From: a phage
Reading direction: 5' to 3' (one strand)
Sequence record: PZ738962.1
DNA length: 64,000 bases
This document shows, one piece after another, positions 1,409 to 52,593 of the stretch. The position numbers and the translations under genes are program-made. The stretch's first letter is position 1, and every line of letters begins with the position of its first letter. The notes under the pieces were generated by a model. The model saw only the letters and a program-made list of their open reading frames with translations, did not search any database and was not told where the DNA came from.

Positions 1409-4400
1409 ATGGCAGATTTTTCTCAACATTTCAAGGCCACATTTGGCTTTGACGCTGGTAATGAAAAGGTCGTCAATGTAGCATTGGCTGATAAGAATGT
1501 CAACACCGATGCGGTCAACGTTGAATTTTTCAATTACCATAATGGTATTACTCAGTATGACACAACTCGCGGTTATGATCAATACGGAACTACAATCTAT
1601 CAAAACCGTCCGTATTATGCAAAAGAAGATATCACAAAGCCAGCAGGTGATTTTGACCCGACTAAATGGCAAGCACTGCGCACGGACCCACGTTGGGATT
1701 ATATTGCAGCAACTTCCGGTGATACTCCTTTACAGTCTGGTGATTATATCGCAGCAGATGGTCAATTTGCAAACTTGACTTTCTCTATGCCAACTAAACC
1801 AGCAGAGGGAGACACTATAACAGTAAAAGATATCGGTGGCAAGTGTGGTGTTAACGAATTATCGTTCTTGAGTACAGGACATGAGTTTTACCATAACGGT
1901 AATGTGTACAACCGAAAATGGTATTGCACTACCCCGTATGCAATGAACTATTTCATCTTTGTTCGTAATCGTTGGCATGTTTATCAGACAGGAACAGAGC
2001 CACGCGGTGTGTACGCACAGCCAGCGATTGATGCTATTCAAATGCAGAATGGTGATCAGGTATTTCGTCGTAGTTCGTTGGGTAATATTACCTTAGTGCT
2101 TCCTAAGTTTGCCAACAATGGCGACATGATCCAGACTACAGACCTTGACGGATTAACCGCAACCAACCACGTTACGGTTAAAGTTCATGAGCACGCAGAA
2201 GAACAATCAATTGGCACGTCCGGTCTAAAAGAGATTATCGGTAAGCGTAGCGGTCATGGTGTATTCATCTTTGACAAGACGGAAAACTTATGGCGTTTGT
2301 GGGATGGTGATCAGTCTGTTCGTCTTAAACCGATCATCAATGACACTCGCTTGCAACCTAATAGTTATGTTGCTGTATTTGGTGGTCGTGATGTTACTCT
2401 GACGCTGCCGACCAATGTCGAGCCGGGTGATCGTATTCAAGTTTCTATGCAGTATATGAACGGAAACCAGAATTGCCGTATTATCACCGCCACAGAGGAT
2501 ACAAAAATCCTTATGCAGAAAAACATGGTTCAGTTTCCTAAGCGTAGCGAGTACCCATTCAATGGGACCGATACATGGACGGGAGTATCTGAATTGTCTT
2601 TCAACGCTGCAAATGATTATGTACCTTATCTGGAGTTCTCTTATTCAGAAGGTGATGATGGTAAGAAATACTGGTTGGTGGCACATGCTCACCCGATTGT
2701 AGAACGAGTAGATCCGACTCGTAAAGATCGTGTTGGTGTAATTGCACTGGCTACCCAAACTGAAACGAATAAAAACCATGAAGAGAATCCTAGCGACGAA
2801 GTTGCAGTAACACCAAAAATGCTGGCTAATAAAACCGCCAACGAAACTCGACGCGGTATTGCTCGCATTGCGACTCAAGCGGAAACGCATCAAGATACTG
2901 GTTCCAACTTCCTGGATGATGTTATCGTTACGCCTAAAAAGTTAAATGACTGTGTTGCTACCGAAGCCCGTCGTGGTGTGATGGAAATTGCAACCCAGCA
3001 CGAAACCAATGAAGGTTTAGACGATACCCGCGCTATTACTCCTAAGAAATTAGAAGAACGTCGCGCTTCCGAAGATCTCGCTGGTATTGCTGAAATTGTT
3101 CAGGCTGGCGGCAGTGCTGCCGCTCGACGTGGCGAAGCTGGTACAGGGATCTATAACATCAATGACCATGCTAAAATTGTTACGCCAAAAAACATCAACG
3201 AAGTCAAGGCGACCGAAACTTCCCGTGGTGTTGGCTATCTGGCAACTGACGCGGAAGTGCAAGGGGCTACAGAATCAACCCCGCAAGATGCTTTACTCAT
3301 CACGACTCGCACGCTAACGAAACGTACTGCTACCGAATCGCGCACTGGTATCGCTGAAATTGCAACTCAGGAAGAAACAAACTTAGGTCAAAGTGATAAC
3401 CATATCATCACGCCTAAAAAGCTGCATACTCGCCGCGCAACGGAAACTTTACATGGTTTAGCAGAAATTGCAACTCAGCCGGAATTTGACGAAGGTCTTG
3501 ATGATGCTCGCATTTCTACCCCATTGAAGATTAAAACCTTCTTTGAGAATGCACAGCGTTTGAAAGTAGATCCAACTCAGGGTCTTAACCTTACTGGTGA
3601 TTTGTGGCAAGGTATCATGATCAGCGGTCTGGATGCAACCGAAGACACAAAAGGTGTCGCTAAAGTTGCGACTACTCAGCTTACTGACGCTGGTCAAGAT
3701 GATACTACAATCATCACGCCTAAAAAGCTGCAAGGCAAAAAGGCCACCGAAGGTAAAGAAGGCATTATCCGAGTTGGTACTCAAGCCGAAACCGTGGCTG
3801 GTATTATGGACAATGTAGCAATTTCTCCGAAGAACTTCAAATATGTTGTTCAGACAGAGGATACATGGAAAGCAACCGAAGCGCGTCGTGGATTCTTGAA
3901 AGTTGCTACTCAGGAAAACTGTTTTGTTGGTGATAATCTGCAAGGTTCTACTCAAGAACTAGGAAACTACCAGCATGACGGAATTGCTGTTACCCCTAAA
4001 GGATTAAACTACGCACTTGCTAATTTCTTACCTAAGATGGCAACCGCTCAGAATAGTTTGAAATTGGGTAACGTAGAGGCCGCTAAATGGGCGCGTAGAG
4101 ACATTGACCAGACCATAGAGAGCAATTACACGTTTAATAAAAACGTTAACGTGAAGGGCGATTTAGAGTGCTTAAAATCAGGTTCCTTTGAAACTCTGTA
4201 TGTGACTAAGAACTCTACTGATGATCCGAGTAATGGTCATCTGGTGTTGGGTGAGCGTGGAGTTGACGGTCACACCGGAATTACTCTGCATGGCACAACC
4301 GCATCGGAAGGCATGAAAAACTCCTGGTCTATTATCGTTGGTGGTACTGGAACGGCGCAAGCAGTTAATAGTGGCGCTATCGCTTTCGGTCAAATCAATG

Positions 4401-8086: not shown

Positions 8087-11029
8087 ATGGCAGATTTAAG
8101 CAGAATCCAATTTAAACGCACTAGCACTAAAGGTCGTAAACCGGATGCTAGTACGATGAATCCGGGGGAATTGGCAATCAACCTTGCGGATCAATATCTT
8201 CTTACTAAAAATGATTCCGGTACTATTATCAATTTAAGTTGTCCTCCGGTTTATGACCGCGATGTTACAATGGCGGGTAAGGTTAAAGGTAATAATTATA
8301 TCTTAAGTAAAACCGCTAACTATCTGGAAGATCAGACAGCGAGAGATCTTAACTACTTTGGTGCTTTCCGTACCAATGGTCTTGATGGTCTTCTCGAACT
8401 CACGCTAAACGTTCCTCACTCTTCCGGTGTCCAACATGGTCGAGGATTTACTTTCCAGTATGGACATACTGGATCACGAGTAGAAACCTATGGCTATAAT
8501 AGAGAAGGTCAAAAAGCATTTAGCTATAAAATGTATCACGAAGGTGATAAACCAACTCCAGGAGAATTGAACGTCTATAGCAAACAAGAAGTTGACCGTA
8601 TGTTTGTTAAGAACGTTAAACTTGCTACATCTCCTAGTGATATCGTTGAAGGCTATTTTAAATTAGCAACTGCAATGATTCCACAAAACGGTCTTAGCGT
8701 ATTTTTCCGTATTCATGGTGGTAACGGATATAACGTTACTGCATACGATCAAGTTGATATTGTAGAAATTGTTATTCGCAGTGGAAATGGTCGCCCTAAA
8801 GGTGTTAACGTTATTGCATATCGCCGAAATACAAACAAATCATTTGATGTTTTGGCTGTTAATACTTCTGGTGATAACTATGATATCTATGTGAAATATC
8901 AGCGTTACACTGATAACGTTATTGTTGAATTTGGTAAAAGTGTTGGTGTTAATCTGGTAGTTCATGACGTTCCAGATTTTGTTGCTGAACGTCCTGCTGG
9001 TGATAATGTTATTGGCGGTCGTGCTGTAACTCTTTTCAACACCGAAAACAAACGAGGTGTGTTGAGTTTTGACGATAACACACAAAATAGTTATGATATT
9101 GTTCACTTGAGTAATGATAGGGGTACTGGACGAAAATATATTCGTAAATTCCGTAGCAACTATAATGAAATGATTTGGCATGAGACGGTTCAAGGTTCTA
9201 CTTATCGACTCGCCACGGGTAGTACAGATGCTCAGGAGATTCTAACCGTTGAATCTAGTAGCTCTATTTCTGGGACTCATAAAGGTAATATTCTTTCTGG
9301 TCGAATGATGTTGGGTGGCGGTAGTAATGTTATTACCTTGCGGCGTCCTGCTGGTCAATCCAACCATATTGCGTTTCAAGATAATCGTACTGGAGCTATT
9401 ACCCGTCAAGGGTGGATCGGTTATGGTAATGCTGATACTAACGTTTTTGAATGGTATAGTGATGTAGGTGGTAGTTCTATTCGTCACCACATCGACGGAC
9501 AGATCGAACTTGCAACCGGTAACACAAAACGCGTTTATACTAACGCTCAATTCATCTCAATGAATAGCGACGCCTACCGTATGATCTACGGTAATTATGG
9601 TGCATTCTGGCGTAATGATGGTGGTAAAGTTTATCTTCTTTCTACTGCCGAAAATGATACATTGGGCGGATGGAACGGCAACCGACCATTTATTTACGAT
9701 TTAACAACTGGTAAAGTTACTTTAGGTGGAGACGGTAACGAAGGCGCATTAGTTCTCGAAAGAGATAGCCGTGCGGCTAGATTTGCTGGCGACATTTACG
9801 TTGGCAAAGGGATGTTAACATTTGATGCCGGACGATTAAATTCTCGCGATTACTTCCGGTTTAACCATTGGGGCGATAGCAATAACGCGCGTGATAACAT
9901 TTTACAGCTTGACGATAGCATAGGTGCACACTTCACCACTGAACGTACTTTAGCAACTGGTGCAATTAAAACTAAATTCTTCGGTAATTTGGAATCTGCT
10001 GGTCAAATTAAATGGGGTAAAGGGACCGCCACATCTACGTTTACTCTACGTGTATGGGGTAGCGATAGCCGTAAACAAATATTTGAATGCGGCGATGAAA
10101 GCGGGTGGCATTGGTATACCCAACGCGCTGGCGGTCCAGATACTTCTGCAATTGAGTTTGCCATCAACGGTACTGTTCGGCCTCAAGCAATTCACACTGG
10201 CGGTAATATCACTATCAACGGTGCTGATATTGAGTTTCGTCGCACTGGCAATAAGCACATCTGGTTTAGAGATCCGAACGGTTTAGAATTGGGTCTGTTG
10301 TACTGCGATGATGCTGGTGTTATGCGTATGCGCGGTGAGAAACAAACCGAAGTCTGGAAATTCGGCGGTAAGATGATTCAACTTGAAACTGGTACTGTTT
10401 CCGGTGGAGGTAATGGCCTGATTCGTGGTTCTGTTGCTGGTGGTAGTTGGACTAGCTGGCGTGATCGTGCTTCCGGTTTACAGGTAGACTGTCAACAATC
10501 AACCGATTCCGCTCATAACGTATGGAAAGCAACCCATCAAGGTAAATATCATATAGCAGCAATGGGTGTACACGTTCCTAGCGGTACTATCGGAAATGCT
10601 ATGGTGCGTATGCACGTACACGATGCAACTTTTGACTGGGGTGCGAGCGGTGACTTCCAAGCAAGCCGTAATGGTAATTTTAACGATGTTTATATTCGTT
10701 CTGATGCTCGCCTTAAAATCAACAAGGAAGAGTATAAGGAGAATGCCACCGATAAAGTTAATCGCTTGACGGTATACACCTATGACAAGGTTAAATCTTT
10801 AACCGACCGTACTGTCATTGCTCATGAAGTTGGTATTATTGCTCAGGATCTTGAGAAAGAATTGCCGGAAGCAGTAACAACTTCTAAGGTCGGCGATCCT
10901 GATAAGCCAGAAGAGATCTTAACAATTTCTAACTCTGCTGTCAACGCTCTTTTAATTAAGGCGTTTCAGGAAATGAGCGAAGAATTGAAAGCCGTTAAAG
11001 CTGAACTAGCGGAACTTAAAAAGAATTAA
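8087..11029 (+). CDS. 37: long tail fibre distal subunit gp37 with C-terminal intramolecular chaperone domain
   Basis: 980 aa; N-terminus MADLSRIQFKR...GELAINL matches T4 gp37 pattern; C-terminus carries an SDARLK...GIIAQDL motif plus coiled coil. Confidence 0.85.
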   Translation: MADLSRIQFKRTSTKGRKPDASTMNPGELAINLADQYLLTKNDSGTIINLSCPPVYDRDVTMAGKVKGNNYILSKTANYLEDQTARDLNYFGAFRTNGLDGLLELTLNVPHSSGVQHGRGFTFQYGHTGSRVETYGYNREGQKAFSYKMYHEGDKPTPGELNVYSKQEVDRMFVKNVKLATSPSDIVEGYFKLATAMIPQNGLSVFFRIHGGNGYNVTAYDQVDIVEIVIRSGNGRPKGVNVIAYRRNTNKSFDVLAVNTSGDNYDIYVKYQRYTDNVIVEFGKSVGVNLVVHDVPDFVAERPAGDNVIGGRAVTLFNTENKRGVLSFDDNTQNSYDIVHLSNDRGTGRKYIRKFRSNYNEMIWHETVQGSTYRLATGSTDAQEILTVESSSSISGTHKGNILSGRMMLGGGSNVITLRRPAGQSNHIAFQDNRTGAITRQGWIGYGNADTNVFEWYSDVGGSSIRHHIDGQIELATGNTKRVYTNAQFISMNSDAYRMIYGNYGAFWRNDGGKVYLLSTAENDTLGGWNGNRPFIYDLTTGKVTLGGDGNEGALVLERDSRAARFAGDIYVGKGMLTFDAGRLNSRDYFRFNHWGDSNNARDNILQLDDSIGAHFTTERTLATGAIKTKFFGNLESAGQIKWGKGTATSTFTLRVWGSDSRKQIFECGDESGWHWYTQRAGGPDTSAIEFAINGTVRPQAIHTGGNITINGADIEFRRTGNKHIWFRDPNGLELGLLYCDDAGVMRMRGEKQTEVWKFGGKMIQLETGTVSGGGNGLIRGSVAGGSWTSWRDRASGLQVDCQQSTDSAHNVWKATHQGKYHIAAMGVHVPSGTIGNAMVRMHVHDATFDWGASGDFQASRNGNFNDVYIRSDARLKINKEEYKENATDKVNRLTVYTYDKVKSLTDRTVIAHEVGIIAQDLEKELPEAVTTSKVGDPDKPEEILTISNSAVNALLIKAFQEMSEELKAVKAELAELKKN
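10700..11026 (+). other. peptidase S74-like intramolecular chaperone (auto-cleaving) domain at gp37 C-terminus
   Basis: SDARLKINKEEY...VYTYDK...GIIAQDLEKELPEAV...coiled coil; matches the conserved SDxRxK / GxIAQ signature of endosialidase and T5 pb1 C-terminal chaperone domains. Confidence 0.65.
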
Positions 11030-26906: not shown

Positions 26907-28298
26907 TCAAATATAGTCTACACGATACCGTGCACGGGTAACACCCACATATAATAACTGCATTGCCAATTCAAAGTCAACATTATCTGTACACATGCAA
27001 GGGGTATACAGGAACACACGGTCTACGCTGATTCCTTGTGACTTATGAATAGTGCAAGCTGGTAATGCTTTTACATTCAAGAACATACGCTTCATCGTCC
27101 AGAAAGAATCCCAATCCGGTTTAAAATTCGGATTCTCTTTCTTCATTTCGCGATATTGTCCGGCGACCGTATTCAGATAGATAGAGAAAATGTTCTTCTG
27201 ACGTTGTTCTGTCAGAATGTTGATTTCTACTAAATCTGGTTTATCTGTAGTTATTCCGACTGCATCTAAACCGACTTTCTGATTTAGGATTTCTTTGTCT
27301 TCGTCATCATCGACGCTTTCCACTTTCAGAGTATATCCTAAAACTGGTTGCGGATCTACCCCCGTGCAACGTAATGTAAATTCGCGCGGTATAACCTCTT
27401 TAACTCGGATCATCTCACCATTGTTAAAAATAATATTGGGAATCTTCTTCCCGCGTTCATCTCGCAGATATTCGATCAATGGTTCCTGAGTAACCAGAAT
27501 TTCATCTACAATCACTGGTTCATCGGTGTTATAAACGCGCTTACGCACAATTTCATTGAGTTTTTCGACGCTCTTGTTAGTGTAGGCCAGAATACGGTTT
27601 TCTAGAAGGTCTTCCGGCGTTTTAACGGTTTCGAAATAATGCTTCATAAACTCCGGCAGAGTTGAGCTATGGAATACACCCTCGTTACCGCACTGCTTTT
27701 CGAATACCCATTTACCATTACGGACAGCGGTCGCCACATCAATTATTGGCGCATTAGATCGTTTAATCTCTGTAAGTTCTACATTCTGAAACCTTTCATC
27801 GGTGAAGAAAGGAGAGATCGACGTTGCACCGCTCGGATCAACTGGTCGTAACTGGTACAGATCACCCACGGCAATAATAACAATTCGACCGTTGATACTC
27901 TTCATGAGAATATCAAATAGTTTCTTATCGACCATACTCGCTTCATCAACAATGATGATCTGAACATCATCTAGCTTAGGAGTATCTTTTTGCTCAAATA
28001 CTTGAGTATCTTCATAGTTGGTCGGGTTTAGTCGCAGTAGTGCATGTAAAGTAAATGCTTGACGACCTACCGCTTTACTCAAAACTTTTTTAGCCTGGTG
28101 GGTAGGCGTTGCCAAAACCACACCAGTTACACCACGGCGGACCATTTCCTGAACAATGAATTTCATCATTGCGGTTTTACCAGTACCCGCCGCACCCCGG
28201 ACAGTTGTATGCTTCTTTTGTTCAATGCGTTTCATTAGAACATCAAAAGCATGTTTTTGCCCGTCTGTTAACATATCGAAAGTTAATACTCTGCTCAT
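26907..28298 (-). CDS. dda: Dda DNA helicase (SF1)
   Basis: 463 aa; N-terminus LTDGQKHAFDVLMKRI...GAAGTGKT...ATPTHQAKKVLSK matches T4 Dda as recalled. Confidence 0.9.
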   Translation of the reverse strand: MSRVLTFDMLTDGQKHAFDVLMKRIEQKKHTTVRGAAGTGKTAMMKFIVQEMVRRGVTGVVLATPTHQAKKVLSKAVGRQAFTLHALLRLNPTNYEDTQVFEQKDTPKLDDVQIIIVDEASMVDKKLFDILMKSINGRIVIIAVGDLYQLRPVDPSGATSISPFFTDERFQNVELTEIKRSNAPIIDVATAVRNGKWVFEKQCGNEGVFHSSTLPEFMKHYFETVKTPEDLLENRILAYTNKSVEKLNEIVRKRVYNTDEPVIVDEILVTQEPLIEYLRDERGKKIPNIIFNNGEMIRVKEVIPREFTLRCTGVDPQPVLGYTLKVESVDDDEDKEILNQKVGLDAVGITTDKPDLVEINILTEQRQKNIFSIYLNTVAGQYREMKKENPNFKPDWDSFWTMKRMFLNVKALPACTIHKSQGISVDRVFLYTPCMCTDNVDFELAMQLLYVGVTRARYRVDYI

Positions 28299-28612
28299 TA
28301 TCCTAAAATCCTCACCTTGCGAACACAGATAGTATTGAGTTCTCGCCGTACCCGTTCTTTTTCATATTCAGGAATTTTATATTCGATACCATCCCGAACA
28401 ATTTCAGAAGACCGGATTATGCCAAATTTTCGTTTAGGCACAACCTTGTATTTCGGTTCACCTGCCAATAGACTCTCACAATAATCTATCTGATCACACA
28501 TTGACGCTAACGCAGCATCATGTGTTTCGCAAGTTAGGACGCGACCCTTCGCGTCCACTGAGTATTGAAAGAATCCGTCTTTATCACGATAACATACAGC
28601 AAATACATGCAT
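28298..28612 (-). CDS. hypothetical protein (104 aa), dda.1 position
   Basis: ATG; start and stop overlap neighbours (coupled). Confidence 0.5.
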   Translation of the reverse strand: MHVFAVCYRDKDGFFQYSVDAKGRVLTCETHDAALASMCDQIDYCESLLAGEPKYKVVPKRKFGIIRSSEIVRDGIEYKIPEYEKERVRRELNTICVRKVRILG

Positions 28613-29367
28613 TATAAACCTACCTTCGCTTTCATCAATTCAATCCACGACGCATCAATCGGAAGCCCGTATTTCACGCGTTCTTTTTGTGCTGGCGTTA
28701 AGTTCTCATACTTAGAAAGAGATTCAATCAAAACGCTGGTATATTTTAGCACGATTTCGGTATTGTTTGCAATAGCCTTAAGTTTTTCTTCTTTCTTGTT
28801 GATTTCGCTAAGGGCTTGCTTGAGATCTGCAATTTTCTGATAACGTTCTTCCATACGGAAGAGAGTATTTTTAATCGCTCGCTCGGCTGCCTCTGCTTTC
28901 TCCGGTTCGTTGTGCTTTTTGTGGCGCTCGATTGCTAATTTCTTTTCTTCGATTGCCATTTCCTGATTTTTGATGCGATTCTCGTTAAGTTCGATCCACT
29001 CGATGTACTTCGCACGTAGGGCAATTTCATCATCAGAAAGTTTACCGTTAGTTCCTAGTTCTTGGATCTCTTTAAGAGATTCGATAGTGTGATTGCCACG
29101 GAAAGAATTGTATTTCAGTTTAACCGGAATTACATTGCCATCAACATATCCCAGATTGCAATCAATGCGCTCTAAGGAGAGTCCGTCATCACCTTCACCG
29201 AAAGCCTCACCTGAATAGGCACAATGAGTCTGACGGTAAATGTTACGAACAGTGACTAAGCTCATAGAGAAGTCTTTGTTGCGACGTGAAGCGCCAGCCA
29301 TGATAGAGTTCAGCCGGAAAACAACCAGCGCCAATTCTTCGTTAGATTTAAAAGCAAACAGTTTCAT
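28612..29367 (-). CDS. Srd-like protein (by synteny), HNH-like Cys/His motif plus long coiled coil
   Basis: 251 aa; occupies the dda - srd - mod position of T4; HCAYSGE...ERIDCNLGYVDGNV motif; identity with T4 Srd not verified. Confidence 0.45.
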   Translation of the reverse strand: MKLFAFKSNEELALVVFRLNSIMAGASRRNKDFSMSLVTVRNIYRQTHCAYSGEAFGEGDDGLSLERIDCNLGYVDGNVIPVKLKYNSFRGNHTIESLKEIQELGTNGKLSDDEIALRAKYIEWIELNENRIKNQEMAIEEKKLAIERHKKHNEPEKAEAAERAIKNTLFRMEERYQKIADLKQALSEINKKEEKLKAIANNTEIVLKYTSVLIESLSKYENLTPAQKERVKYGLPIDASWIELMKAKVGL

Positions 29368-29396
29368 AATTGATTCTCCTTAGTTGGTATGTGTGT

Positions 29397-29425
29397 ATTA
29401 TTGTCTATCTGGTTTGTCCTGTCAA
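29397..29425 (-). promoter_or_regulatory. PeSL-type early promoter (TTGACA-N17-AATAAT)
   Basis: conserved leader ACACACATACCAAC...GGAGAATCA; drives 28612..29367. Confidence 0.5.
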
Positions 29426-29428
29426 CAC

Positions 29429-29932
29429 TTAAATTAAAGAAAATTTGTAAATCTCTATCAGATCGCCGTTACACGCGTAAACTTCCTCGATCTCATCAAG
29501 GATCATGGTCGTCCCTGTCTTGTATATGCACTCGCGCTCATCTGCCAACATAGCATACAAAGACAGTCGAGTAGTCGGATTGTCATACTCTTTAGACACC
29601 ACTCGGTCAATAGCATGTTCGTAATAATTCATGCAAGGCTTGGTAGGTTTTATTGCAATAATCTTTCCTGTTGCATAAACATCGGTTGCAAAGTCCTCTG
29701 CTGTTGATTGCAGTGGCGTAAAGCTCATAGGACGCTCTACAACGAAAGAATCGCCTACAATTAAGGTATCCAGCTTACGACCTTCTCTTTTGCTCACACC
29801 GCGATACAAGGCTTCATGATGCACTAACCGCTCAGTCTTTTCGATCAATCCATTAAGGATCGACATATCGATATTTTCTTTAGAGTTCATCACCTCATCA
29901 ATGATGTTAAGTTCTTCTGGTGTAAATTGCAT
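29429..29932 (-). CDS. ADP-ribosyltransferase (ModA/ModB-like)
   Basis: 167 aa; R-S-E triad pattern (YRG ... SFT ... ERE) typical of ADP-ribosyltransferases; position as T4 modA/modB. Confidence 0.65.
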   Translation of the reverse strand: MQFTPEELNIIDEVMNSKENIDMSILNGLIEKTERLVHHEALYRGVSKREGRKLDTLIVGDSFVVERPMSFTPLQSTAEDFATDVYATGKIIAIKPTKPCMNYYEHAIDRVVSKEYDNPTTRLSLYAMLADERECIYKTGTTMILDEIEEVYACNGDLIEIYKFSLI

Positions 29933-46888: not shown

Positions 46889-46930
46889 AGTCTCTTCCTC
46901 TCTTCGTTTTCGATGCTCTCACTATATCAC

Positions 46931-46956
46931 AGAAAAATAAAAAGGGAAACCCCTTT
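46931..46956 (-). terminator. intrinsic terminator (minus strand) after 46979..47266
   Basis: AAAGGG-AAAC-CCCTTT hairpin followed by U-run on minus strand. Confidence 0.5.
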
Positions 46957-46978
46957 CGGAGTCTCCCTTATAAAGCCA

Positions 46979-47267: not shown

Positions 47268-47501
47268 TTATTTTCCTTCTGGGATATAATCAATTATTAA
47301 AGAAAATTCATCTTCTGATACATTATAGCTATGTGAGATTGTACCCGTAAAGACCTCAAGATCCGGTGATTTGATATTGCACGGATCGATAATCACCGGA
47401 ACGCCGCAATCTCTCAAAAATAATTTGGCGAAATACGGCACAAGGTCAGTTTCAAACTCTGCTTCTTCCAGCAAACGGGAAATGTTAATTTTCAATCTCA
47501 T
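47268..47501 (-). CDS. hypothetical protein (77 aa)
   Basis: ATG; overlaps gene 55 stop. Confidence 0.45.
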
Positions 47502-48018
47502 AAAATTGGTCCAAGCTAGGCAATTCCTCGGTCAATACATCTTCAACCTTTGGCGCTTTCGGTTTATTGACCGATTCCTCGTAGTTGTTGATTTTATCGT
47601 AAATGTCCTGTATGAATGCCTCATCAGCAATCTGGCACATATCAGCGTCGCGTTCGTCATATACATGATGCACAAAATATTTGTATTTTGCGGCTGTCGC
47701 TGTTCTCTCTTTTTTAATGCGCTGTACAAAAGCATTAAAGCACGCTTGCGTGATGTAAGCATGAGGATTTTTATACTTTGTCTCGTCAAAATTAATCAAA
47801 CCCTTGACCGCCGCTTCGATTCCGTCGTCGATCATTTCTTCGCGCCACGTTTGACTATAACCAGAAAAGTTAAAACGACGTGATAGATTTTTAGAGATTT
47901 GCATAATTGCTAGGCCGATTTGATCGCTCATTGGAACTTGCCGACCTTCTGCTGCAATTTGTTGTTTCCAACGGCAAATTTCTTCGTAAAGCTCTTTATT
48001 GTTTACATAATCAGACAC
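47485..48018 (-). CDS. 55: late-transcription sigma factor gp55 (apparent GTG start)
   Basis: 177 aa; strong similarity to T4 gp55 as recalled ([58 protein letters not shown]); conserved N-terminus requires the GTG at 48018. Confidence 0.9.
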
Positions 48019-48058
48019 TTCGCACCCTCGCTATTATTTAGGAAATAACCCTTTCGGG

Positions 48059-49528
48059 CTATTCCCCATTACCATTATACTTTCTTTGCTTAGTTATCCA
48101 CACTCTAACCATCTCTACAGATTCGCCGTCAGACGGATCAAGAGTTTTTCCTTTTTTCTTCATGCGGTACTTAAATCCGTTAAATCTTGCATTCTCTTGC
48201 TCGTTAAAGTCGAACATCTTTTTAAATGATTTTCGCCCTTTACGCTCACCACATTCTAGCGGAATCATTCGGTCTGTTATTACATTGGCATTAGGCAGAA
48301 ACGTTTTTAGATAATCCACCAACGCCCAATCAGGAACATATAGATTAACATTCTCCTTGCTCTCGTTGTCTCTCAGGTTACAACGCAAACATAATTGAAA
48401 TGCTGGTTCCAGATAATCAGACACATGACGCGCTTTCAAAAACTCGTTTGTCGGGAGATCACAACTATTAGCAAGACCTTTTAAAATATCAATCTCCCAT
48501 CGTTGAGGGTTAAAGCTGAACATCACAGCAACATTTTTATGATGAATGTAAGAGTTAAGACCATAAGATCCGTAAGGTATCCGCTCACCAATACCATTTG
48601 TACACGCTTCACGGTCCCGATTCACGGTATAAATGAAGTCATCGCCACATTCATTTTTAACCATATCAACAAGACGTTCAAAGGTATTGTTTGTTTCTGA
48701 CTGGTGACGCGACCAGCGTTCGGAGTCCGTCATAAGGATGATGTTAACTCTATCTGTATTTTTATATTCTTTGAAATATAGTCTGGATTCTAGCGCACTC
48801 GGAACAAAATCGCAATTTGCATAGTATCGTAGATACTTCCCACTATATGTATCAAAGAGATTTGCACATGCTATCGTAACCTTTTTAAAGTCTCCCCACG
48901 TACCGTGTTTGTTATCGTTCAAGAAAACAATTTTCGACCCATTCTTCCGGTGTCCTTCGTTATGTTTTACCATAACGTTGATTTTCTTCTCTAATAACGC
49001 CTCATAAAGCCCTCTAAGAGAAGAATCGATCATATCAGTACCATCCTTTGCACTTTCTATCTTTTCTTTGATAGCGGCCTTCTCAGAGTCTTTTAGAACT
49101 AAGTTCTGTAGGCATTCCGATTCGTCGGCGATTGGTTCGCAATGCTTCGTGATAAGTTCAAGATTAGACTTAAACGGATACTCATTAAATTCAACCAGTT
49201 GAGGAACTTCATCAATGTAAAGAGCATATTCACCAAACATTTTTGAACGTTCCATATTAGATAACGCTGTATGTGTAATGAATATCACATCAGCACCGTC
49301 TTTAACTGATTGCATTATCGACGCTTGCACTGTCTTAAGGCTTCTTAGTCTTGTGCTATCAATCAAGACAGCACGACCGCCCATTCTTTTAAACTTATTG
49401 TAAGATTGTTCACTTAAAACACGAGATGGCGAAGCAATAACCGCTTTTTCTTTTGTCTCTAGGACGTGGGAAAGTATAGCATCAGTTTTCCCAGCCGCTG
49501 GCAATGCGATTAATGTTTCAATCTTCAT
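48059..49528 (-). CDS. uncharacterised P-loop NTPase, helicase-like N-terminal domain (489 aa)
   Basis: Walker A IALPAAGKT, motif Ia-like ASPSRVLSEQ, Walker B LYIDEVP; C-terminal 300 aa without recognised motifs. Confidence 0.6.
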   Translation of the reverse strand: MKIETLIALPAAGKTDAILSHVLETKEKAVIASPSRVLSEQSYNKFKRMGGRAVLIDSTRLRSLKTVQASIMQSVKDGADVIFITHTALSNMERSKMFGEYALYIDEVPQLVEFNEYPFKSNLELITKHCEPIADESECLQNLVLKDSEKAAIKEKIESAKDGTDMIDSSLRGLYEALLEKKINVMVKHNEGHRKNGSKIVFLNDNKHGTWGDFKKVTIACANLFDTYSGKYLRYYANCDFVPSALESRLYFKEYKNTDRVNIILMTDSERWSRHQSETNNTFERLVDMVKNECGDDFIYTVNRDREACTNGIGERIPYGSYGLNSYIHHKNVAVMFSFNPQRWEIDILKGLANSCDLPTNEFLKARHVSDYLEPAFQLCLRCNLRDNESKENVNLYVPDWALVDYLKTFLPNANVITDRMIPLECGERKGRKSFKKMFDFNEQENARFNGFKYRMKKKGKTLDPSDGESVEMVRVWITKQRKYNGNGE

Positions 49529-49815
49529 TAGAAACCCTTACGTCGTGCTTTCTGGCATTTCTTGATCATTTTATCAGAAATTTCGCGCTTAGGTGCAATC
49601 TCTTTCACACCGAAAGCACTAATGCCAAATTCAGAGAGAATATATTCAACTAACAATTCACGCACACGCGCTTTACCGATATTCACGCCGTTATTTTTCA
49701 GATATGTCTGGCCTTCGACTTGCATCAGATCTAAATCTGCGTCGGTAATATTGATTTCTTCCATGCGCCCAAATCGAGAATAAACCATGTGTGCGATTGC
49801 ATTGTGTACTAACAT
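49528..49815 (-). CDS. hypothetical protein (95 aa from ATG)
   Basis: ATG at 49815 with GAGTGAGGAATATATT upstream; track start is TTG. Confidence 0.5.
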   Translation of the reverse strand: MLVHNAIAHMVYSRFGRMEEINITDADLDLMQVEGQTYLKNNGVNIGKARVRELLVEYILSEFGISAFGVKEIAPKREISDKMIKKCQKARRKGF

Positions 49816-49836: not shown

Positions 49837-49995
49837 TTACTTAATAATACTTACTTTACCAGATCCGTGACAATGAGCACAACACCCATCACCACGCAAT
49901 CCTGTTCCGTTACAGTGTTTACACTTCTTCAACGGTAAAGCCATTATAGCAAATAAAGCAATAATGAATACCGAAACTAAATTCTCAATAATCAT
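49837..49995 (-). CDS. small membrane-anchored protein with DnaJ-type zinc finger (52 aa)
   Basis: MIIENLVSVFIIALFAIMALPLKKCKHCNGTGLRGDGCCAHCHGSGKVSIIK: N-terminal hydrophobic helix then two CxxCxGxG motifs; GAGGG SD; below track cutoff. Confidence 0.5.
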   Translation of the reverse strand: MIIENLVSVFIIALFAIMALPLKKCKHCNGTGLRGDGCCAHCHGSGKVSIIK

Positions 49996-50254
49996 AAATC
50001 GCCCTCAGTTCTTTATAGCCTCCAATGTGCTCGTTGTCAATGAATATCTGGGGGTATACAAATCGGAGGCTCTTTGAGTTCAGCCTCCCCGCCAGTTCTT
50101 CAATCATATCACGGTCGGGAATAATGTCAACCCCGACCTGCTTGAATACTGGTTTAAGTGTATACGGAATACCCAGATCATCCAGTAGCTTCATTGCACT
50201 AATACAACCATAACAATGATAAGCCTCTTTCGGTATGCCGTATATCTCGATCAT
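49985..50254 (-). CDS. glutaredoxin/thioredoxin-like protein (NrdH/NrdC-like, CYGC active site)
   Basis: 89 aa; CxxC active site near N-terminus, C-terminal IGGYKELRAxY glutaredoxin signature. Confidence 0.75.
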   Translation of the reverse strand: MIEIYGIPKEAYHCYGCISAMKLLDDLGIPYTLKPVFKQVGVDIIPDRDMIEELAGRLNSKSLRFVYPQIFIDNEHIGGYKELRAIYDY

Positions 50255-50748
50255 TTCTCAGCCTTTAATCTTTCTAGTTCTTCTTCCAGTTCCTTGATCC
50301 GTTGGTCACGTTCAAAGTCACGCTGCAACTTAGTGGCGAATACTCGTTTAAACTGATTGTAATCATCGATTTTAAACACTTCTTCTTCGCCATAGCGACG
50401 TACAGAAACTTCGTAGTTATTGAATAATTGTTCCAACATTGCATCAGTAGTCAGTTCTGACGACACCACTTTAAAATAACGTTCTTCTGATTGCAAAAAC
50501 CAGTTGTGCGCGTATTCCCGTACATCATCAACATCTCGACAGGTGTATGTTTTTCCATCAATTTCAATCGCAGAAACATATTCGATATCTGAAGCAATTT
50601 TTTCAAAAGCGATAACTTTAAATGTACGGTCACCGATAAAGTCTGCTATTGCATCATTTGCAACACTGGTTGCAAATGCTTTCCGCGCTCGCTCGTTTTT
50701 CCACTGATAGGTCATACCAACAACAAACATATTACCATCAACAAACAT
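50251..50748 (-). CDS. paralog-family protein A1 (WKxxxAxxxF...IEIDG...ERYFKVV module)
   Basis: start at ATG 50748 with GAGGA upstream; 5' end contains an 18-bp perfect tandem duplication; shares module with 50750..59044 paralogs. Confidence 0.55.
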   Translation of the reverse strand: MFVDGNMFVVGMTYQWKNERARKAFATSVANDAIADFIGDRTFKVIAFEKIASDIEYVSAIEIDGKTYTCRDVDDVREYAHNWFLQSEERYFKVVSSELTTDAMLEQLFNNYEVSVRRYGEEEVFKIDDYNQFKRVFATKLQRDFERDQRIKELEEELERLKAEK

Positions 50749-50749
50749 A

Positions 50750-51574
50750 TTACCATCCTCGCTCTTTACCAATCAAAAATTCAACTTCACGACGTTTAAT
50801 GTCTTCTTGAAGGTCTTTAATCTTCTGGCGATCTTGCATGATTTCATCCATCTTGTCAAGTGCCGCAATGAAATCATCGAAACGTTCAAAGGTTTTACCT
50901 TCATTTGCTTCGCCAAATTTAACCATTGTCAGGCCGTAACGACTACTAAACAGACGTTTCAACTGTCCAACGATCTTAGAATCAGTGGTTATAACTTCCA
51001 ATTCTTCTACTTCACGAAAGAATTTTCTATCAGAATCAATAAACCAGCTAGTTCCTTTATGGTCTCTATCTTCGGTTGCGCTCATTAGAGTATGGTCTTT
51101 ACCATCAATTTCAATTACATCAATTTGCCCACATGGACGAACATTTTTAACAGTAAAAGGTCTATAATTTATTGCTCGTGCAATAACATAATTAAGATTA
51201 GATACGTTTTCAGCATAATGACAGAAGTCGGTCATAGCATTCGCATCTTTCCAAGTATAAGTTTTACCAACTTCCCATTTCTGGGGAACTTCTTCAACTT
51301 CACGAAAGAATTTTCGATCGAATGGACTAAAGAAATATGTTGCAGTCCAAATGTCTTTTCCTGTAGCAGTTTTCGCCGTATGATAAACACCGTCTAGCTC
51401 TATTGCATCAATCCAACCGTTATCATCGATCTCGATGATGGTAAATGGCTTGTCACCAATAGCTGCACTAATATCGCTGTTAAGTGGAGAAAGAACACCT
51501 TCTCCGTTAGTAATAAACTCAGTTTTAGCGTTTTCATCTTTCCAGGTGTAGGTTTTACCAATTTCCCATTTCAT
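50750..51574 (-). CDS. paralog-family protein A2 (two tandem copies of the module)
   Basis: 274 aa; MKWEIGKTYTWKD...FDRKFFREVEE then QKWEVGKTYTWKD...DSDRKFFREVEE; coiled-coil tail. Confidence 0.6.
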   Translation of the reverse strand: MKWEIGKTYTWKDENAKTEFITNGEGVLSPLNSDISAAIGDKPFTIIEIDDNGWIDAIELDGVYHTAKTATGKDIWTATYFFSPFDRKFFREVEEVPQKWEVGKTYTWKDANAMTDFCHYAENVSNLNYVIARAINYRPFTVKNVRPCGQIDVIEIDGKDHTLMSATEDRDHKGTSWFIDSDRKFFREVEELEVITTDSKIVGQLKRLFSSRYGLTMVKFGEANEGKTFERFDDFIAALDKMDEIMQDRQKIKDLQEDIKRREVEFLIGKERGW

Positions 51575-51586
51575 AATATATTCCCC

Positions 51587-52051
51587 TTAACCGATTTTAT
51601 CAAGTTCGTTTAATGCTTTCTCTGCTTCCTGTATAGCTTGCACCCTTTCCGGCATTTTGTCAAGAAAATCTTTCAACTCTTCAAAACTGGAGATATGACG
51701 CAATGCGTTAGCACCGATAGCCGCATGTGATTTGCATTCAAAGCGGATTTTATAATTATCCATCGCCAACTTGAGAAGATCAATTAATTTAGATTCTTCT
51801 GGAATAATAATTTCTTCAAATCTGCTACGGTCATGATCCAGAAACCAACAAGATAGACCTACATCGGTTGAACTCATATAAGTTCCATCATGAAGATAAA
51901 CAGACCGCACGTATCCTTTTTTCGCATCAACCGACGCAACTTTAAACGGTAATCGCAGATATTTCAAATAATCAACATCATACCATTTAAAAAATTGGTT
52001 TGCATCTTTTACATCTTTCCACGCATAGGTCTTACCAGCTTCCCATTTCAT
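51587..52051 (-). CDS. paralog-family protein A3
   Basis: start set to ATG 52051 (MKWEAGKTYAWKD) by paralog alignment; track ORF starts 5 codons upstream. Confidence 0.55.
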   Translation of the reverse strand: MKWEAGKTYAWKDVKDANQFFKWYDVDYLKYLRLPFKVASVDAKKGYVRSVYLHDGTYMSSTDVGLSCWFLDHDRSRFEEIIIPEESKLIDLLKLAMDNYKIRFECKSHAAIGANALRHISSFEELKDFLDKMPERVQAIQEAEKALNELDKIG

Positions 52052-52055
52052 AATA

Positions 52056-52583
52056 TCATCTCTCATTTTTGATACGTGATTCTAATTGGATCATACGGTC
52101 GCGCGTTTGTTTGTATTCTCGGATAGCACCGATCCGGCTAGGCATACCATCCAGTACGCTCTTAATACCTTCTAGGGTAGTGATTTTAGCAATGCTATTA
52201 TGCAACCCCATCTTATCGATCAACTGAATGTCGTAGGCTTCCATAAGCAGACCCAGACGTTCTAAAGTTAGGTCTTCTTCTTTTTCTTCAGAATCTGGAA
52301 TCTTAGGTTCAATAATAACTTCGGTAAAGAAACGACGCTCACCCGACCAAAACCACACACCGGAACAGCCAATAGGGGATTCTTTTAACGTCATAGAGTC
52401 GAAATCACTACCAATAATAGTAATTTCTCTAACATCACCATCATCGTCAAGGTCTTCTACCCTAAACGGGCGACCAGCCAACAAGTCAACAATACATCTG
52501 TTAATAGACGACGAAAATTTAGTCAGTTCGGCTTTCGACGCTTCGCATTCAATCTTGTAAGTTTTACCAACTTCCCATTCCAT
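52056..52583 (-). CDS. paralog-family protein A4
   Basis: start at ATG 52583 (MEWEVGKTYKIE) with TTGAGGTG upstream; ERRFFTEV motif. Confidence 0.55.
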   Translation of the reverse strand: MEWEVGKTYKIECEASKAELTKFSSSINRCIVDLLAGRPFRVEDLDDDGDVREITIIGSDFDSMTLKESPIGCSGVWFWSGERRFFTEVIIEPKIPDSEEKEEDLTLERLGLLMEAYDIQLIDKMGLHNSIAKITTLEGIKSVLDGMPSRIGAIREYKQTRDRMIQLESRIKNER

Positions 52584-52593
52584 AATAATCACC

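Follow-up and report, generated by a model that had tools for sequence, protein, structure and literature searches.

Bacteriophage T4 serves as the textbook model of replication and recombination, with gp41, Dda, and UvsW as its three well-studied helicases. In helicases of the XPD/DinG type, an iron–sulfur (FeS) domain helps form a pore for single-stranded DNA (ssDNA). A 2025 review describes members of this family as built from two motor domains (MD1 and MD2), an Arch domain whose size varies, and in most cases an FeS domain, the Arch and FeS domains both being inserted into motor domain 1; CasDinG carries a pseudo-FeS (pFeS) domain, and sDinG has no such domain and a degenerate ATP site (PMC11981726). 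The review of the DinG-like family does not mention phage or primase-fused forms. Here we describe a 489-residue protein encoded on the minus strand of phage record PZ738962.1, which we analyzed as one strand of 64,000 nucleotides (this whole stretch is the window, and feature coordinates are window positions), and compare its predicted architecture, its relatives, and its genomic setting with those of known superfamily 2 (SF2) helicases.

The gene is a complete open reading frame (ORF) whose DNA is 99.4% identical to positions 28105–29574 of phage RB49 (Krischvirus, Straboviridae) and whose base composition equals that of the adjoining genes. The protein is 100% identical to one RB49 product; its RefSeq counterpart, RB49p044, is labeled "hypothetical protein", and the RefSeq label gp55.2 belongs to the 95-residue gene directly upstream. 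The protein was assigned to phrog_2467, a group of unknown function (E 9e-175). Searches of a phage collection with tblastn returned full-length homologs in 244 records, 185 of these at 31–45% identity, from T4-like phages of Aeromonas, Cronobacter, Enterobacter, Citrobacter, Klebsiella, Serratia, Proteus, Morganella, Erwinia, and Pantoea and from RB43. A gp55 homolog is present in 1,996 records of the same collection, which places the helicase gene in ~12% of T4-like genomes; among Aeromonas T4-like phages, 77 of 78 carry it. The tblastn search of this collection found no homolog in T4 itself, T4-type coliphages, Acinetobacter phages, or cyanophages. A location immediately upstream of gene 55, flanked by the nrd genes on one side and the 55-47-46 block on the other, is shared by Krischvirus, Tulanevirus, Ishigurovirus, Bragavirus, and Muldoonvirus; in Pseudotevenvirus the 55.2–helicase pair adjoins gene 34 instead. 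The slot between 55 and 55.2 is occupied in T4 by the small ORFan 55.1 (PMC4396842). The full-length conservation in 244 records, the PHROG match, and the position upstream of gene 55, which is kept in several genera, show that the ORF is real rather than a chance reading frame. Aeromonas phages 25, 31, and 44RR carry gene 42, which encodes dCMP hydroxymethylase (PMC2993671), and the coexistence of gene 42 and the helicase gene in Aeromonas phage 25 (P0034) rules out the idea that the gene marks phages with unmodified cytosine. A 486-residue homolog (locus 2556..4016; Pfam DEAD, 26 bits) also occurs in the 136-kb Pseudoalteromonas phage PH357, which does not belong to the Straboviridae; the short form is thus not strictly confined to that family.

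An alignment of 29 homologs (31–74% identity) contains 57 invariant columns, and the AlphaFold2 model built on this alignment was confident (mean pLDDT 87.8, pTM 0.76). The N-terminal part is modeled as strand 1, the P-loop, and helix 1, followed by motif Ia and by core strands that lead to the motif II strand at residues 102–106. After motif II come an insertion at residues 110–215, comprising a β hairpin, two long helices, and further strands, then a strand at the position of motif III, an α/β domain at residues ~256–423, a disordered linker at residues 426–431, and two terminal helices. The original prediction, made from the sequence alone, had described a 489-residue ORF with a helicase-like N-terminus; the ORF lies at exactly the coordinates given in Table 1, and the quoted Walker A (IALPAAGKT, residues 7–15), Ia (ASPSRVLSEQ, residues 32–41), and Walker B (LYIDEVP, residues 103–109) segments are all present in helicase order, with their catalytic-site residues invariant and with SxSRxLSxQS as the family form of the motif Ia segment (residues 33–42). 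Judged by its sequence, the first RecA-like domain (RecA1) with motifs I, Ia, and II has the traits of an SF2 protein. The prediction had also found "no recognisable helicase domain 2", which stands at the level of sequence, where the only Pfam match above its cut-off is to DEAD (DEAD/DEAH) over residues 11–130 (27.4 bits versus a cut-off of 26; AAA_34 was sub-threshold), and fails at the level of fold, because the model contains a second RecA-like domain (RecA2). What it had called an unassigned 300-residue C-terminal region is divided in the AlphaFold model into an insertion at the Arch position, the rest of RecA1, RecA2, and a 66-residue tail. Conserved blocks in this part of the protein correspond to helicase motifs IV (FIYTxN, residues 298–303), V (G323-L-N325, with GLN invariant in the family), Va (FSYNP, residues 337–341), and VI (Q378-x3-R382-x3-R386), and the model predicts a complete second RecA-like domain with motifs IV–VI. 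Residues Q378, R382, and R386 are also invariant in an alignment that includes the distant homolog P0043, whose genomic context was uninformative.

The model aligns with many SF2 helicases across both RecA domains. Foldseek, which the original prediction had proposed as a check on the predicted structure, ranked XPD, CasDinG, and Staphylococcus aureus DinG first among PDB entries (E 3e-10 to 1e-7). The fold comparison gave values of 18.3 for F. magna DinG, 18.0 for XPD, 17.7 for CasDinG, 17.4 for Rad3, and 17.1 for S. tokodaii XPD, compared to 14.5 or less for generic SF2 cores (Ino80, HsdR, SecA, Chd1) and 12.3 for T4 UvsW; the second column of the comparison held 348 for F. magna DinG and about 240–260 for the generic cores and was not recorded for the other entries. 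With E. coli and F. magna DinG, archaeal XPD, and yeast Rad3, the phage protein shares an accessory insertion between motifs II and III, although structure-based sequence identity to these proteins is 10–17%, the phage protein is shorter (489 residues versus 550–740) and lacks the FeS domain, and its motif VI has the spacing Q-x3-R-x3-R. No FeS or pFeS domain could be placed in the 29-homolog alignment, which has no conserved cysteine cluster and in which only C130 and C380 are conserved cysteines; in the alignment and the model, residues 43–105 form ordinary core strands and helices, so that only ~63 residues separate motifs Ia and II. The FeS cluster is also missing from CasDinG of type IV-A CRISPR systems and from S. 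aureus-type ExoDinG, both of which rank high in the Foldseek results, and the CasDinG arch of 116 residues, made of helices and a small sheet, is close in size to the 106-residue phage insertion (PMC10450177); removal of the CasDinG arch reportedly abolishes unwinding but leaves the ATPase active. Unlike the phage protein, however, CasDinG and ExoDinG keep a pseudo or vestigial FeS domain, have extra N-terminal domains, and function in a CRISPR or exonuclease context.

The arrangement MD1, compact Arch, and MD2 without an FeS or pFeS domain is shared, as judged from the published description, with sDinG of Nostocales and related cyanobacteria, the only DinG-like subgroup to lack both domains (PMC11981726). 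Whereas sDinG is reported to have no conserved ATP- or DNA-binding residues (PMC11981726), the phage family keeps all of these invariant. Neither the protein nor the 29 family members matched Helicase_C or, at E ≤ 1, DEAD_2 (PF06733) or Helicase_C_2 (PF13307), and the Pfam scan of the 29 members returned only N-terminal DEAD and AAA_34 matches. NCBIfam had no match to the 489-residue protein, and neither its single sequence nor the 29-sequence profile gave a meaningful hit in PDB sequence searches. Because it has no FeS or pseudo-FeS domain and does not match the family sequence models, we do not file the protein as a member of the DinG family; we place it in a separate SF2 lineage of the same overall architecture, with a layout closest to sDinG and an intact catalytic site.

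Word-indexed searches recovered the T4-like family together with two long proteins of 799 and 826 residues, and a search with the 826-residue protein revealed a proteobacterial family of about 750–860 residues. Profile–profile comparison with hhalign aligned phage residues 2–423 with residues 10–438 of the long family (probability 100%, E 5e-39), and homology ended at residue 423; tblastn linked the two families at E 1e-11. When 1.84 billion cluster representatives were searched exhaustively with a profile, 1,323 clusters matched at E ≤ 1e-3 and 756 at E ≤ 1e-10; the superfamily therefore has, as a lower bound, at least 1,323 clusters at 50% identity. These clusters fall into two size classes, ~470–560 and ~750–890 residues, both of which can be aligned along the entire helicase core. 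In 58 long forms, the lysine of Walker A, the D-E pair of Walker B, G-x-N of motif V, and Q/R/R of motif VI are invariant, and the phage protein has these same residues. Whereas the phage protein ends 66 residues past the helicase core, the long relatives carry at that point an extra C-terminal domain of ~350 residues with an AEP primase-like fold, an invariant LDFD motif, and conserved H and D residues, and 2 of the 58 also have a PriCT domain (Pfam PriCT_2, E 4.9e-7, or PriCT_1). The order of domains in these long forms, with an N-terminal SF2 helicase and a C-terminal AEP primase/PriCT-like part, is the reverse of that in classical primase–helicase fusions.

The long forms correspond to phrog_31024 and include Sphingobium Sj15T_00520 and a Methylocystis "DEAD/DEAH box helicase family protein". 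In contrast to the phage protein, which belongs to virulent T4-like phages, they occur in temperate elements of Proteobacteria: the Sphingobium form sits in a prophage close to genes for a small terminase, an invertase, and tail proteins, and others adjoin integrase, AlpA, and HTH genes. Long forms were absent from the cultured-phage and plasmid collections, the plasmid collection held almost no relatives of any kind, and a scan of the bacterial loci for transfer RNA genes found one only. The long helicase–primase family is sizeable and apparently undescribed, and it shows the helicase module repeatedly combined with a primase in mobile elements of the temperate kind. The presence of long forms in a prophage and beside integrases ties the module to the DNA replication of such elements, and of the evidence available, the coupling to a primase points most strongly to a replicative role.

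Based on these results, the phage protein is very probably an active SF2 helicase or translocase. With more limited confidence, we favor the fuller reading that it is a catalytically competent SF2 helicase/translocase of XPD/Rad3/DinG architecture that is expressed early and serves as an accessory DNA helicase on replication and recombination intermediates. ATP would occupy a site between K14 (Walker A), D106/E107 (Walker B), and R382/R386 (the arginines of motif VI), and its hydrolysis would drive inchworm translocation along ssDNA, probably in the 5′→3′ direction by analogy with the structural neighbors; the inserted domain at residues 110–215 may aid strand separation. The gene would most likely be transcribed early, as the last gene of an nrd–55.2 unit, and its product would act in an accessory capacity on forks, D-loops, or R-loops beside gp41, Dda, and UvsW. 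The phage protein is orthologous to none of UvsW (SF2), Dda (SF1B), and gp41 (DnaB-like), and UvsW stands far below DinG and XPD in the fold ranking. Clear homology to a T4-family housekeeping protein, which the original prediction had named as evidence that would speak against it, was therefore not found in these proteins. Moreover, the RB49 genome includes dda, 41, and 61, to which the helicase gene is an addition, and replacement of Dda or gp41 by the new protein can be ruled out.

Several results weigh against this fuller reading. None of the XPD/DinG sequence models in Pfam matches the protein or the 29 family members, and the literature on family members comprises only a weak DEAD/DEAH match and a single database label: RB49ORF044c was listed with E 0.069 by Nolan et al., 2006 (PMC1524935), and one GenBank record calls a homolog a "putative helicase". 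Searches of the literature on PHROG 2467, Krischvirus helicases, and phage DinG/XPD returned nothing on the 489-residue protein. As the FeS domain is absent, polarity and unwinding mechanism are not simply transferable from XPD/DinG. Because RB49 already encodes gp41, Dda, and gp61 and because the gene is missing from 88% of gp55-bearing phages, its role must be accessory and could lie outside replication and recombination. Finally, σ70-like promoter-like sites upstream of the gene (49873..49844 and 50130..50103) belong to a class that is not enriched over shuffled sequence (11 found versus 8.7 expected). Early co-transcription with the nrd–55.2 unit is thus something we infer, since promoter-like sites are no more frequent than chance. 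The fuller reading gains support, on the other hand, from the location of the gene on the same strand as the replication genes and from the lack of a late promoter (TATAAATA) nearby.

The original prediction had suggested that a large ATPase in such a region might be a defense or counter-defense component. Such a protein would strip or evade a host immune effector, for example a restriction enzyme, a CRISPR complex, a retron, or a Hachiman-type sensor, or would exclude competing phages. A role of this kind is compatible with an accessory gene found in ~12% of gp55-bearing phage records, with the host-modulating ORFans (55.1, 55.2) that T4 carries in this region, and with the immunity helicases CasDinG, Hna, and DdmD among the structural neighbors, and phage SF2 helicases do meet defense systems, as when UvsW and D10 trigger Retron-Eco11 (PMC12746101). 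The position of the gene, however, is stable in at least six genera rather than cassette-like, the protein has no nuclease or effector domain, and its sole conserved partner is gene 55.2, which T4 has without the helicase. PADLOC-DB 2.0 gave no meaningful match (the best, RTasSLATT, covered an unrelated 60-residue stretch at E 0.0088 and 13.6 bits), and the distant relatives are fused to primase-like domains and not to defense effectors. The analysis thus yielded nothing that supports the suggestion, and we consider a defense role unlikely.

The relatives fused to DNA primase-like domains also argue against a DEAD-box-type RNA helicase or RNA chaperone that would act on phage or host mRNA in translation, decay, or processing. 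The single Pfam match covers only residues 11–130, and compared to DEAD-box RNA helicases the phage protein starts directly at strand 1 and the P-loop with no Q motif, has DEVP rather than DEAD as motif II, and shows no Helicase_C match; in addition, the folds that it matches best belong to DNA helicases carrying an Arch insertion. We therefore regard an RNA-directed role as quite improbable. Loss of enzymatic function, leaving a degenerate remnant that serves purely as a structural or binding protein, has been proposed for cyanobacterial sDinG, whose ATP site is apparently defective and whose architecture (MD1, compact Arch, MD2, no FeS) is that of the phage protein (PMC11981726). Unlike in sDinG, all residues for ATP binding and hydrolysis in the phage family are invariant over large evolutionary distances, which makes a non-enzymatic remnant extremely improbable. 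A DNA-directed SF2 motor remains the reading that we prefer.

The basic tail that follows the helicase core (17 K+R versus 10 D+E) is specific to the T4-like phage family and occupies the place of the primase-like domain of the long relatives. In the model, pLDDT falls below 50 at residues 426–431 and then rises to 88–91. The tail contains a conserved motif, SFKKMFDF in the window (F435 in 23 of 29 sequences, Q436 in 21, F/Y439 in 26, and M441 in 27), that resembles the C-terminal peptides of gp43 (SLTDLFDI) and gp55 (SLDQFYEI) of this phage. The C-terminal peptides of gp43, gp55, and gp33 bind the gp45 sliding clamp. By analogy, SFKKMFDF can be viewed, speculatively, as a clamp-binding peptide that would tether the helicase to gp45 and recruit it to forks or to clamp-activated late transcription complexes. 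This reading fits the fixed position of the gene beside gene 55, the placement of the motif after a disordered linker, and its retention across the family, and comparable peptide pairs occur in an Aeromonas phage (NLDSFYED versus SYQALYQM) and in Muldoon (TLESFYED versus SFQKMFSM). A loose regular expression matched only SFKKMFDF and the gp43 and gp55 peptides in all six-frame ORFs of the window, where 0.5 matches were expected, but this count is circular because the pattern was written after the three sequences had been seen. Moreover, the motif is internal, 48 residues before the C-terminus, whereas the T4 peptides known to bind the clamp lie at the terminus; the residues around the motif are basic, not acidic; and it is modeled as a short helix of moderate confidence that may simply pack against the tail helices. 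We consider tethering to the clamp doubtful. Equally doubtful, in our view, is a broader scenario in which the T4-like protein would be a stand-alone module of a large mobile-element class (an FeS-less XPD-like helicase with a C-terminal AEP primase/PriCT part) whose primase was replaced after capture by a sliding-clamp-binding tail, yielding a fourth, clamp-tethered 5′→3′ helicase at forks or R-loops.

The gene lies between gene 55 and the nrdC-like glutaredoxin gene, as originally described, with two small ORFs between the latter and the helicase gene (Table 1). The upstream gp55.2 homolog (DUF7570) and the helicase gene overlap in the sequence TAATG, with AAGG 7–11 nucleotides upstream, and because of this stop/start overlap the two are probably co-transcribed and translationally coupled. 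The same overlap is found in RB43, Kp_GWPR59, PM2, and avDM6. Co-occurrence of neighboring genes, which the original prediction had put forward as a check, was thus seen for the DUF7570/55.2 pair in these four phages and RB49 and was not seen in T4, which has 55.2 without the helicase, or in Aeromonas phage 50AhydR13PP and Muldoon, where other genes intervene; an obligate helicase–gp55.2 pair is weakened as a proposal by the same observations. In 50AhydR13PP, a gene for a DprA-like DNA recombination mediator (PHROG 768, E 7e-66; locus 3429..4004) lies directly upstream and overlaps the helicase start. T4 gp55.2 inhibits host topoisomerase I (PMC4396842), and the inhibition of this enzyme, R-loops, and a DinG-like helicase may be functionally linked.

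At its 3′ end, the helicase gene runs into a hairpin that spans the stop codon, with a folding free energy of −19.2 kcal/mol (z −3.9; 0 of 200 shuffles as stable) and no U-tract; the annotation of phage Muldoon shows a terminator at the corresponding position. The hairpin probably marks a transcript 3′ end or a stabilizing element ahead of gene 55, and its role may be in processing or stability rather than in intrinsic termination.

Table 1. Window coordinates of the helicase gene, its predicted parts, and adjoining features
Feature	Coordinates	Strand	Evidence or remarks
Helicase coding sequence, complete, 489 aa, ATG start	48059..49528	minus	ORF listing; RB49p044 ortholog; PHROG 2467
Motif I/Walker A, P10-A-A-G-K-T15 (within IALPAAGKT, residues 7–15)	49484..49501	minus	P10, G13, K14, T15 invariant in 29 homologs
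Motif Ia region, A32-S-P-S-R-V-L-S-E-Q-S42	49403..49435	minus	S33, L38, S42 invariant; N-terminus of model helix 36–48
Motif II/Walker B, D106-E-V-P109 (in LYIDEVP, residues 103–109)	49202..49213	minus	D106, E107, P109 invariant; ends strand 102–106
106-aa insertion in RecA1, residues 110–215, between motifs II and III (Arch position of XPD/DinG)	48884..49201	minus	
RecA1 return, residues 216–255, with motif III-like T218-I-A-C-A-N223	48764..48883	minus	Strand 216–221; T218, N223 conserved
Predicted RecA-like domain 2, residues ~256–423	48260..48763	minus	Motifs IV, V, Va, then LxVPD (396–400)
Motif VI, Q378-L-C-L-R382-C-N-L-R386 (putative arginine fingers)	48371..48397	minus	Q378, R382, R386 invariant in phage family
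Basic tail, residues 424–489	48062..48259	minus	Disordered linker, helices 443–458 and 468–486
Conserved tail motif, S434-F-K-K-M-F-D-F441	48206..48229	minus	Family consensus [ST]-F-Q-x-[ML]-[FY]-x-M
13-bp hairpin with GAAA tetraloop, spanning helicase stop codon, ahead of gene 55	48039..48068	minus	RNA fold
Gene 55 (late sigma factor), immediately downstream	47485..48018	minus	ORF listing
gp55.2 homolog (DUF7570), upstream, stop overlaps helicase start	49528..49815	minus	Pfam DUF7570, E 1.4e-28
52-aa ORF, between gp55.2 homolog and glutaredoxin gene	49837..49995	minus	ORF listing
Glutaredoxin (nrdH/nrdC-like) gene, upstream	49985..50254	minus	

Other features of the surrounding region were noted in passing. 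The 52-residue ORF encodes a hydrophobic N-terminal helix and two DnaJ-type CxxCxGxG zinc-finger motifs (CKHCNGTG and CAHCHGSG) and resembles a membrane-anchored mini zinc-finger protein, with sub-threshold Pfam matches only. Between the glutaredoxin gene and nrdG, positions 50251..52592 of the minus strand hold four tandem paralogous ORFs of 173, 274, 159, and 178 residues that share a module of ~95 residues (WExGKTYxWKD...RPFxV...IEIDG...WF..DRxFFxEV) followed by a helical tail; the 274-residue ORF contains two repeats, none has a Pfam match, and the RB49 counterparts are the hypothetical proteins p048–p051. Between gene 47 and a-gt.4, the window has a 90-nucleotide intergenic gap (46889..46978) where RB49 carries the HNH-AP2 homing endonuclease gene RB49p040 (RB49 locus 8641..9195), a mobile endonuclease gene that is thus present in some RB49-like phages and absent from others.

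We describe the protein as a compact, FeS-less, XPD/DinG-shaped SF2 helicase that T4-like phages encode and that has relatives fused to primases in prophages; it does not represent a new kind of system. A modest practical benefit would come from better annotation, as "XPD/DinG-like SF2 DNA helicase", of the gene in several hundred phage genomes, including some in therapeutic use. The homology, which extends to at least 1,300 clusters with many helicase–primase fusions of prophages among them, provides a first functional handle on PHROG 2467 and PHROG 31024, both of unknown function. If active, the protein would rank as the smallest helicase of XPD/DinG shape that retains an intact ATPase site while lacking both FeS and pseudo-FeS domains, and it could serve to examine how the FeS domain affects unwinding and polarity. 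For the T4-like phages themselves, the finding points to an uncharacterized, conserved fourth helicase in ~12% of genomes, among them those of the RB49 and RB43 groups and of almost every T4-like Aeromonas phage.

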